A DNA stretch of 64,000 nucleotides, from the NCBI RefSeq assembly GCF_003334255.1, contig NZ_QOWU01000001.1. The stretch is one strand, 5' to 3'. Shown piece after piece: positions 28,670 through 30,523 of this stretch. The notes beneath the pieces were generated by a model. It was not told the DNA's origin, did not search any database, and saw only the letters and a program-made list of their open reading frames with translations. Source of the DNA: Escherichia coli. GTDB lineage: Bacteria; Pseudomonadota; Gammaproteobacteria; Enterobacterales; Enterobacteriaceae. Position 1 is the stretch's first letter, and the number at the start of each line of letters is the position of its first letter. Made by a program: the position numbers and the translations under genes.

Positions 28670-30523
28670 ATGAAAATGACTTTGCCGTTTAAACCCCATG
28701 TGCTGGCGCTAATTTGCAGTGCCGGGCTTTGTGCCGCCTCTACCGGGCTATATATAAAAAGCCGCACAGTGGAAGCGCCTGTGGAACCGCAATCGACACA
28801 ACTGGCTGTGTCTGACGCTGCCGCGGTTACGTTTCCTGCAACGGTTTCCGCACCTCCCGTAACACCCGCCGTCGTCAAATCCGCATTCAGCACTGCACAA
28901 ATAGATCAATGGGTCGCGCCCGTCGCGCTGTATCCCGACGCCCTACTTTCGCAGGTGCTGATGGCATCAACCTATCCGACAAACGTTGCTCAAGCAGTGC
29001 AATGGTCGCACGATAATCCACTTAAACAAGGCGATGCTGCTATTCAGGCGGTATCTGACCAGCCGTGGGACGCCAGCGTTAAATCACTGGTGGCCTTTCC
29101 ACAATTGATGGCATTGATGGGCGAAAACCCGCAATGGGTGCAAAACCTGGGCGATGCTTTTCTGGCCCAGCCGCAGGACGTGATGGACTCGGTACAGCGA
29201 TTGCGGCAACTGGCGCAACAAACCGGCTCGCTGAAGTCATCAACCGAACAGAAAGTTATTACCACAACGAAGAAAGCTGTACCGGTAAAACAGACAGTCA
29301 CGGCACCCGTCATACCATCCAATACAGTTTTAACTGCCAACCCCGTCATTACAGAGCCGGCAACAACCGTCATTTCCATTGAGCCCGCCAATCCTGATGT
29401 GGTCTATATTCCCAACTACAACCCAACCGTGGTTTACGGGAACTGGGCCAATACTGCGTATCCGCCGGTTTATCTGCCACCACCAGCCGGAGAACCGTTT
29501 GTTGACAGCTTTGTACGCGGATTCGGCTATAGCATGGGCGTTGCTACCACGTACGCACTATTCAGCAGCATCGACTGGGACGACGACGATCATGACCATC
29601 ATCATCATGACAATGATGATTATCATCACCACGATGGCGGTCATCGTGACGGTAATGGCTGGCAACACAACGGCGACAACATCAATATCGACGTCAACAA
29701 TTTCAACCGTATCACCGGTGAGCATCTTACTGATAAGAATATGGCATGGCGGCACAATCCAAACTACCGTAATGGTGTGCCCTATCATGATCAGGATATG
29801 GCAAAGCGGTTTCATCAAACCGATGTCAACGGCGGAATGAGCGCCACGCAATTACCTGCCCCAACGCGCGACAGCCAGCGTCAGGCGGCAGCAAATCAGT
29901 TTCAGCAACGAACACACGCCGCACCAGTCATTACACGAGATACCCAACGTCAGGCAGCGGCACAGCGGTTTAATGAAGCTGAACACTATGGGAGCTATGA
30001 CGACTTCCACGACTTCAGCCGTCGCCAACCACTGACCCAGCAACAAAAGGACGCCGCTCGTCAGCGTTATCAGTCCGCCTCGCCTGAGCAGCGCCAGGCA
30101 GTTCGCGAGAGAATGCAGACTAACCCGAAGATCCAGCAGCGAAGAGAGGCAGCGCGTGAGCGCATTCAGTCCGCCTCGCCTGAGCAGCGCCAGGCGGTTC
30201 GCGAGAAAATGCAGACTAACCCGCAGAACCAGCAGCGAAGAGACGCAGCGCGTGAGCGTATTCAGTCCGCATCACCAGAGCAGCGCCAGGTGTTTAAGGA
30301 AAAAGTACAGCAGCGCCCACTGAATCAACAGCAACGTGATAACGCCCGCCAGCGTGTTCAATCGGCATCACCTGAACAACGTCAGGTTTTTCGGGAGAAA
30401 GTTCAGGAGAGCCGCCCACAACGTCTAAACGACAGTAACCATACTGTCAGGCTGAATAACGAGCAACGGTCAGCAGTATGCGAACGTCTCTCTGAACGTG
30501 GAGCAAGAAGACTGGAAAGGTAA
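28670..30523 (+). CDS. yacH: DUF3300-family secreted protein with His/Asp-rich tract and C-terminal 32-aa tandem repeats
   Basis: 617 aa; signal peptide; His/Asp cluster DDDDHDHHHHDNDDYHHHDGGHRD; 96-bp in-frame tandem repeats encoding QSASPEQRQAVRE(K/R)MQTNP..QQRR.AARERI. Confidence 0.85.
   Translation: MKMTLPFKPHVLALICSAGLCAASTGLYIKSRTVEAPVEPQSTQLAVSDAAAVTFPATVSAPPVTPAVVKSAFSTAQIDQWVAPVALYPDALLSQVLMASTYPTNVAQAVQWSHDNPLKQGDAAIQAVSDQPWDASVKSLVAFPQLMALMGENPQWVQNLGDAFLAQPQDVMDSVQRLRQLAQQTGSLKSSTEQKVITTTKKAVPVKQTVTAPVIPSNTVLTANPVITEPATTVISIEPANPDVVYIPNYNPTVVYGNWANTAYPPVYLPPPAGEPFVDSFVRGFGYSMGVATTYALFSSIDWDDDDHDHHHHDNDDYHHHDGGHRDGNGWQHNGDNINIDVNNFNRITGEHLTDKNMAWRHNPNYRNGVPYHDQDMAKRFHQTDVNGGMSATQLPAPTRDSQRQAAANQFQQRTHAAPVITRDTQRQAAAQRFNEAEHYGSYDDFHDFSRRQPLTQQQKDAARQRYQSASPEQRQAVRERMQTNPKIQQRREAARERIQSASPEQRQAVREKMQTNPQNQQRRDAARERIQSASPEQRQVFKEKVQQRPLNQQQRDNARQRVQSASPEQRQVFREKVQESRPQRLNDSNHTVRLNNEQRSAVCERLSERGARRLER
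30071..30430 (+). repeat. 96-bp tandem direct repeat inside yacH, about 3.7 copies
   Basis: Repeat units begin at 30071, 30167, 30263 and 30359; the first two are near-identical and later copies progressively diverge. Confidence 0.85.

Follow-up and report, generated by a model that had tools for sequence, protein, structure and literature searches.

yacH of Escherichia coli, a DUF3300 gene with a 96-bp coding repeat array that varies in copy number between strains and a length-variable His/Asp-rich tract

Coding variable-number tandem repeats (VNTRs) are known from bacterial envelope and surface proteins, as in the multiple-locus VNTR analysis (MLVA) of Escherichia coli and Shigella. Long charged and repetitive helical regions are also found in the envelope, an example being domain II of TolA, which lies C-terminal to the anchoring part of that protein and spans the periplasm, and ZraP carries a His-rich metal site. 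Here we describe yacH, a gene that can be set beside each of these systems. It is a single open reading frame (ORF) at 28670-30523 on the + strand of a 64,000-nt stretch of E. coli DNA (contig NZ_QOWU01000001.1 of assembly GCF_003334255.1; "the window" below means this whole stretch) and encodes 617 amino acids (aa) followed by a TAA stop codon. In E. coli RefSeq annotation it is labelled yacH or DUF3300 domain-containing protein, and its neighbors acnB and lpdA both lie on the - strand. yacH is in every E. coli genome examined (5,426 of 5,426 complete genomes by megablast) and yet is still counted among the genes of unknown function.

Of the papers retrieved here that mention yacH or DUF3300, none assigns a function, and those on yacH offer only regulation and knockout phenotypes, in agreement with the preliminary description of the window, which was drawn from its letters and had called the function unknown; a 2025 study still keeps yacH in the y-ome list. 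The gene is reported to be CpxR-regulated, its deletion mutant is more resistant to protamine, and both cecropin A and protamine reduce the level of its mRNA (PMC9600279). A rob mutant expresses it at a 16-fold lower level, ampicillin induces its promoter, a cathelicidin-derived peptide induces the gene in strain UTI89, and its knockout leads to a better yield of recombinant protein.

The 3′ part of the gene is occupied by a 96-bp (32-aa) tandem repeat array at 30032-30415 on the + strand (aa 455-582). It comprises eight 16-aa half-units, namely a leading half-unit, three full units (30080, 30176, 30272) and a final half-unit, with unit starts in codon register at 30080, 30176, 30272 and 30368. 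Tandem Repeats Finder returned a period of 96 over 30070-30290 (2.3 copies, 92% matches, score 379), and a repeat search placed four in-register copies at 30034-30417 with 100, 84, 68 and 63% identity to the first copy. The first two units differ at 7 of 96 positions, an identity of 93% in DNA, and their translations are 88% identical; units 2 and 3 are 67% and units 3 and 4 are 50% identical, the values for later units dropping to 60–67% and 42–50%. The array is real, in frame and degenerating toward its 3′ end. The degenerating 96-bp repeats of the preliminary description, with a nearly identical first pair, are thus borne out by a period of 96 and four in-register copies whose identity falls 3′-ward. 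A first impression of ~11 half-unit copies was cut to 8 clear ones, since the extra copies reach ≤5 bits with a hidden Markov model (HMM) of the half-unit. The same HMM finds clear copies in Escherichia alleles only and gives ≤5 bits outside the array and in other genera.

Each 32-aa unit splits into two halves of ~16 aa with the common pattern (E/Q)QRxx(A/V/F)(R/K)E(R/K)(M/I/V)Q. Structure prediction of the repeat region, one of the checks named in the preliminary description, was run in AlphaFold2 with a 121-sequence family alignment and yielded one helix per half-unit in the first six (aa 457-469, 472-484, 486-501, 504-516, 518-533 and 536-547), with the helices broken at Pro. The predicted local distance difference test score (pLDDT) is 78–92 up to aa 540 and ~66 over aa 541-550; the last two half-units (aa 551-582) are modeled as coil, and the score stays <50 across aa 549-614. 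Behind the array lies a basic C-terminal end (30416-30520, + strand; aa 583-617; pLDDT <50) that holds one further weak motif copy, NNEQRSAVCERL. As modeled, the tail is a basic, Gln/Arg-rich region (net charge +14) built of ~16-residue helices, which in Escherichia are organized as 32-aa helix-turn-helix modules. Such a helical tail could serve as an extended binding or spacer arm.

Copy-number variation between strains, which the preliminary description had thought possible, was evident when repeat units were counted across E. coli genomes: alleles with 2, 3, 4 and 5 units exist. Frequencies come from two systematic samples of 60 genomes each, taken from the 5,426 and not amounting to a full census; in both, ~55% of genomes have 4 units and ~43% have 3, with 2 and 5 units being rare. 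In the first sample, 33 of the 60 records had spans of 1854, 1848 or 1815 bp (4 units), 20 had spans of 1758 or 1764 bp (3 units) and a single record had 1662 bp (2 units); a further five, from B2-type strains, align only to query base 1648, and one is the highly divergent allele of strain AST85. In the second sample, which covered the 3′ gene segment only, spans of 631/630 bp were seen in 33 records and spans of 535/523 bp in 21; five further records were of B2 type, and one fell in none of these classes.

Unit number is not the only thing that differs, as at least three different unit architectures occur among the 3-unit and other alleles of the samples. With units coded as A ("AVREKMQTNP..."), B ("VFKEKVQQRPL...") and C (the terminal half-unit), translated alleles read A-A'-B-C in K-12, A-B-C in KO11FL and the ST131-like strain AVS0155, A-A-C in UTI89 and strain 401656, and B-C in strain 158274-3, and protein cluster P0006 has the 5-unit form A-A-A-B-C in which all three A units are identical in protein. 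Units 1 and 2 are likewise identical at the protein level in some alleles. Such units fit recent duplication or conversion, which is in keeping with the recent expansion or concerted evolution proposed in the preliminary description. Near-identical haplotypes carry different numbers of units: L001 (3 units), L003 (2) and L007 (4) differ at 3–12 of ~1,360 upstream sites and at 0 sites downstream. The alleles L002 (A-B-C) and L004 (A-A-C) show 20 site differences, yet different units are missing from them. Changes in unit number are therefore recurrent. Shifted by 96 bp, units 1 and 2 match exactly over 30 bp, which is enough for unequal recombination or slippage; we infer that unequal recombination or replication slippage between near-identical 96-bp units changes the number of modules, and that the tail tolerates the differing numbers.

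yacH thus has in-frame head-to-tail units whose number differs between strains, close haplotypes included, as expected of a coding VNTR. The two outcomes that the preliminary description had named as counting against it, an invariant repeat number and a known function, were not found. Within the sampled clones unit number is uniform: K-12 derivatives, BL21 and O157:H7 have 4 units, and the one ST131 strain has 3. The pattern of phase-variable on/off switching was not seen, all unit and tract length variants of intact alleles being multiples of 3. The MLVA locus ms11 also has a 96-bp unit and was considered as a possible identity of the array, but neither of its primers (PMC8215070) matched the 64-kb window at ≤3 mismatches, and the identity was rejected. 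Tails also contain in-frame duplications that are not a multiple of 96 bp (45, 17, 4 and 3 aa). The 45-aa duplication, of AAPVITRDTQRQ...PLTQQQKD, is present on 27 contigs (P0001-P0003, 662 aa), and the 17-aa duplication lies within unit 3 (P0049, 634 aa). Short-read assemblies and pan-genome or core-genome multilocus sequence typing (cgMLST) schemes may mis-handle this locus.

A second part of the protein varies in length as well, in a manner resembling a microsatellite. The His/Asp-rich low-complexity tract DDDDHDHHHHDNDDYHHHDGGHRDGNGWQHNGD lies at 29576-29677 on the + strand (aa 303-336), where an acidic His-rich cluster had already been noticed at ~29572-29680. Its 34 residues include 10 His and 11 Asp/Glu, the net charge of the region is -10 and pLDDT is <50. 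Those of the 120 best-matching protein clusters that allowed the limits of the tract to be set yield 28 sequence variants with lengths of 25–47 aa, and the tract contains His runs of 3–6 and one to three copies of a 7-aa unit, D[DN]DDYHH. Slippage at the CAT/GAT/GAC codon runs and at the 21-bp unit would account for these length changes. In the model the tract forms a disordered acidic loop inserted in a folded core. Of 150 distant homologues, 21 have a His-rich patch, and most of them have it at this same place; it is therefore a family feature rather than an E. coli oddity. The tract has the clustered His and Asp expected of a His-rich metal-binding protein, and its only matches in the PDB are His-tags. 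We hypothesize that the loop binds metal or other cations, as a candidate low-affinity site for divalent metals or cationic peptides. Frameshifts in yacH are sporadic only, being limited to truncated cluster representatives and a published 8-bp deletion within the tract that truncates YacH in a Salmonella isolate. The truncated representatives P0122, P0123 and P0128 and the out-of-frame P0148 suggest occasional pseudogenization.

The gene is also far more divergent between strains than its neighbors. Between K-12 and UTI89 nucleotide identity is 91.6% for yacH, 97.4% for acnB and 98.3% for lpdA, and between K-12 and AST85 it falls to 75% for yacH with flanks at 95.5% (acnB) and 98.8% (lpdA), so that yacH is an island of divergence; in about half of the genomes it lies in a 90–95% identity band. 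The ratio of non-synonymous to synonymous substitution rates (dN/dS) is 0.07–0.20 in the tail and repeats, compared to 0.07–0.12 in the core (K-12 against four typical alleles; the range of the core reaches 0.05 once the divergent AST85 allele is included). The tail is therefore constrained protein sequence under purifying selection. The LpdA protein has one and the same accession in eight of eight strains fetched. The AST85 gene (L008 2501-4360) encodes 619 aa, megablast covers only 5% of the K-12 gene with it, and it has 34-aa (102-bp) repeats of its own, "TPEQRQAFREKVQNQQRPLSQQQRDSARQRIQSA"; recombinational import from another Escherichia lineage is a possible origin.

The three-part architecture of the preliminary description is confirmed by the ORF, the Pfam match and the repeat analysis. 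The N-terminus, MKMTLPFKPHVLALICSAGLCAAS, resembles a Sec signal peptide without a lipobox (28670-28741, + strand; aa 1-24, as read from the sequence) and contains the hydrophobicity maximum of the protein, 1.91 at aa 11-29 (Kyte-Doolittle, 19-residue window). The preliminary description had called the protein secreted, a term that is to be read as export to the envelope, predicted solely from this signal-peptide-like N-terminus, and not as proven release. The Pfam domain DUF3300 (PF11737; 28892-29668, + strand; aa 75-333, E = 1.5e-78) is the sole Pfam family in YacH and is aligned over its full length (model positions 2-227 of 227); an NCBIfam search of the protein gave no match. The domain region opens with an N-terminal part of eight helices (aa 75-184), from which a variable linker leads to a part rich in strands and proline (aa 232-301); pLDDT is 96–98 over aa 75-200 and 75–95 in the strand-rich part. 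A Gly-rich hydrophobic segment, FVRGFGYSMGVATTYALFSS, lies at 29516-29575 on the + strand (aa 283-302). The His/Asp tract follows, and behind it comes a block conserved in the family (29678-29824, + strand; NINIDVNNFN ... WRHNPNYRNGVPYHD, consensus "INVN..N..N ... W.HNP.HR.GVPYRD"), which the whole-protein model packs onto the strand-rich part of DUF3300 (pLDDT 83–95 over aa 341-380); the start of the block has lower pLDDT in the domain-only model. The whole-protein model has a predicted template modeling score (pTM) of 0.61, and the model of the core reaches 0.81. In addition to confirming the earlier account, the analysis refines it in three respects: each repeat unit comprises two helices of ~16 aa, length polymorphism extends to the His/Asp tract, and the gene is divergent beyond its neighbors.

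YacH belongs to a very large family that has no characterized member; when sequences are clustered at 50% identity, 9,583 cluster representatives match the family at E ≤ 1e-3. The consensus order of parts in this family starts with a signal peptide or lipobox, a helical "ALYPD...WDPSV...LGDAFL" domain and a variable linker, continues through a "VVYVPxYNP...YPPxYxPPP" block, a Gly-rich hydrophobic segment and the "INVN" and "W.HNP.HR.GVPYRD" blocks, and ends in a long basic low-complexity tail. YacH has its parts in the same order. Some homologues have lipoprotein-type Cys signals in place of the signal peptide, and tails in other genera are alike in composition but not alignable, some having repeats of their own. 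No relatives of YacH were found in the PDB by sequence, the N-terminal 390 aa matching His-tags only, and a Foldseek search of the model against the PDB returned nothing below E = 0.1. The core is thus confidently modeled and has no known structural relative.

Taken together, we read yacH with moderate confidence as the gene for a Sec-exported, modular envelope protein of the DUF3300 family that is stress-responsive, with a helical tail that is constrained while tolerating differences in length and a loop that would bind metal or cations. YacH would then act in the periplasm within the envelope-stress response, which could be in line with its reported control by CpxR and Rob and its response to cationic peptides and ampicillin. 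Several points weigh against this reading. The periplasmic location is a prediction, metal binding by the His/Asp loop is putative, and the copy-number frequencies are those of samples rather than of a full census. The reported direction of regulation is inconsistent, since cpxA24 and NlpE overproduction activate yacH and protamine represses it. Moreover, 45% of homologues have a Gly-rich segment whose hydrophobicity would suffice for a transmembrane helix.

The last point leads to a different topology, in which YacH is a single-pass inner-membrane protein with DUF3300 in the periplasm, aa 283-302 spanning the membrane and the tract and tail in the cytoplasm, where the Arg-rich tail would bind nucleic acid, ribosomes or the membrane surface. 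The segment, which follows the YVPxYNP motif, has a median hydrophobicity of 1.56 across 110 homologues (45% above 1.6) and resembles a GxxxG glycine zipper; the net charge of the tail (+14) and the GGGRR at the end of many homologues fit the positive-inside rule. However, the E. coli segment has a score of only 0.78 and includes Arg, Ser, Thr and Tyr, and two independent AlphaFold2 runs, of the whole protein and of the domain only, give core-packed short strands and no helix. The residues that follow are acidic (net -10), or neutral and Asn-rich in homologues, counter to the positive-inside rule, and the block beyond the segment (aa 338-380) is predicted to lie packed on the exported core. 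For E. coli, a transmembrane helix in this segment (aa 283-302) finds no support given this hydrophobicity and the lack of a modeled helix, and because of the same two observations a fully exported YacH is favored; the single-pass topology appears rather unlikely. It is somewhat easier to imagine, although still unlikely, that the tail is a functionless low-complexity sequence whose length variation is wholly neutral, considering that tails of other genera are similar in composition without being alignable, the last ~65 residues have pLDDT <50 and alleles with 2–5 units all persist. Yet dN/dS in the tail (0.07–0.20) is as low as in the core, the helix periodicity is conserved with pLDDT of 78–92 over the first six half-units, the reading frame is kept in every allele examined and the family, with its 9,583 cluster representatives, has kept a basic tail throughout.

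Two further alternatives assign a more specific role to the variable parts. If YacH were exposed on the surface, the gene could be a contingency or antigenic-variation locus under diversifying or frequency-dependent selection by hosts, phages or colicins, and this would suit an island of divergence amid the conserved acnB and lpdA, the 90–95% identity band that holds about half of the genomes, the two independent length-variable tracts and a location predicted as "extracellular" in one paper. That surface exposure is a software prediction only, though, dN/dS is low throughout (0.05–0.2), unit sizes in multiples of 3 do not permit on/off switching of the frame, and unit number is uniform within well-sampled clones, which makes this explanation quite improbable. 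The tail could alternatively be a tandem array of CpxP/Spy-like LTXXQ modules, with YacH as a periplasmic chaperone or Cpx adaptor that has a ZraP-like metal patch. A pairwise BLASTP of the tail against CpxP (whose sequence was verified against PDB entry 3ITF) gave 27.3 bits (E = 8e-5, 30% over 130 aa), both LTXXQ motifs of CpxP align with "SASPEQRQ", 0 of 300 shuffles of either partner reach 27.3 bits, and yacH is reported to be CpxR-regulated. On the other side, repetitive Gln/Arg-rich sequence inflates pairwise scores and one block shuffle reached 26.2 bits; Spy gave 15 bits, which is not significant; neither CpxP nor Spy was found in the PDB sequence search or the fold searches; Pfam LTXXQ (PF07813) and Metal_resist do not match the whole protein at E ≤ 10, nor does LTXXQ match any of seven tail sequences; and HHalign of the tail with a CpxP plus Spy alignment gave 5.7% probability over 16 columns, with a CpxP profile that is thin (close orthologues only). 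Membership in the CpxP/Spy LTXXQ family is not supported, since the Pfam and HHalign results do not bear out homology, and a motif-level resemblance alone is kept; we regard the LTXXQ explanation as very unlikely, and a chaperone-like role of the tail is hypothetical. Equally speculative, with a very low chance of being right, is that YacH is an envelope-stress effector whose CpxP/Spy-type modules bind clients or a sensor and whose loop is a ZraP-like metal switch. If true, the number of modules (2–5) and the length of the loop (25–47 aa) would tune chaperone or peptide-binding capacity, and the Cpx regulation and the protamine phenotype could be explained.

The surroundings of the gene are simple. 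On the upstream side acnB (-) ends at 28468, leaving a divergent intergenic region at 28469-28669 that presumably holds the yacH promoter. A sigma-70 consensus scan of the + strand upstream of yacH found no promoter-like site, and the best result of a CpxR-box consensus search there was a 2-mismatch match, no better than chance. Control by CpxR and Rob is taken from the literature only. Downstream, lpdA (-) occupies 30594-32051 and the 70-bp gap between yacH and lpdA contains only a bidirectional intrinsic terminator hairpin (30536-30564) common to the two convergent genes. It is laid out as an A-run, a GCGGC stem, a 7-nt loop, a GCCGC stem and a T-run, with a folding energy of -16.2 kcal/mol (z-score -2.6) for the + strand and of -16.7 kcal/mol (z-score -4.3) for the - strand. 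In B2 strains the interval from the yacH stop codon to lpdA has an insertion of ~171 bp (UTI89, L004 2459-2699; window ~30543), with palindromes like those of repetitive extragenic palindromic elements and bacterial interspersed mosaic elements (REP/BIME) and a second copy of the terminator stem. An IS1A lies inside yacH in one wastewater isolate (strain SW071611, NZ_CM129855.1), and seven of the match places of the yacH search are on plasmids. The median of 2 match places per genome is probably due to the repeats aligning out of register and not to a second yacH locus.

These results give handles on yacH and neither settle its function nor overturn any expectation: it is a real but fairly ordinary length-variable gene. 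The natural alleles with 2–5 modules and the variable His/Asp loop form an allelic series ready for complementation. In other bacteria the DUF3300 gene has a DUF2950 gene directly downstream (L010 5296-6336; L011 5190-5984), a pairing that has been described before (PMC4653623), and in the enterobacterial relative L011 the pair adjoins acnB. The E. coli yacH locus differs in being without a DUF2950 gene. A distant blastn of the L011 DUF2950 gene against the 5,426 E. coli genomes gave no match at the DNA level, and the partner gene has been lost in E. coli. One cluster representative, P0130, looks like a frameshifted DUF3300-DUF2950 fusion.

CpxP, Spy and ZraP are helical, Gln/Arg-rich and periplasmic, as YacH is predicted to be, and the second LTXXQ motif of CpxP shares "[LA][TS]PEQ[QR]xV[LF]xEKxQQR" with YacH at the start of a helix, whereas in YacH the motif belongs to a tandem array that is joined to an unrelated domain. 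As a charged, repetitive helical region the YacH tail may be likened to domain II of TolA, and we know of no sequence relationship between the two. A regular array of 96-bp modules was seen in Escherichia sequences only and not in other DUF3300 tails. yacH is thus an already known y-gene that provides a new case of a coding minisatellite, in-frame, head-to-tail and polymorphic in copy number like the coding VNTRs of other bacterial envelope and surface proteins, while its range is narrow in comparison (2–5 units) and it is seemingly stable within clones.

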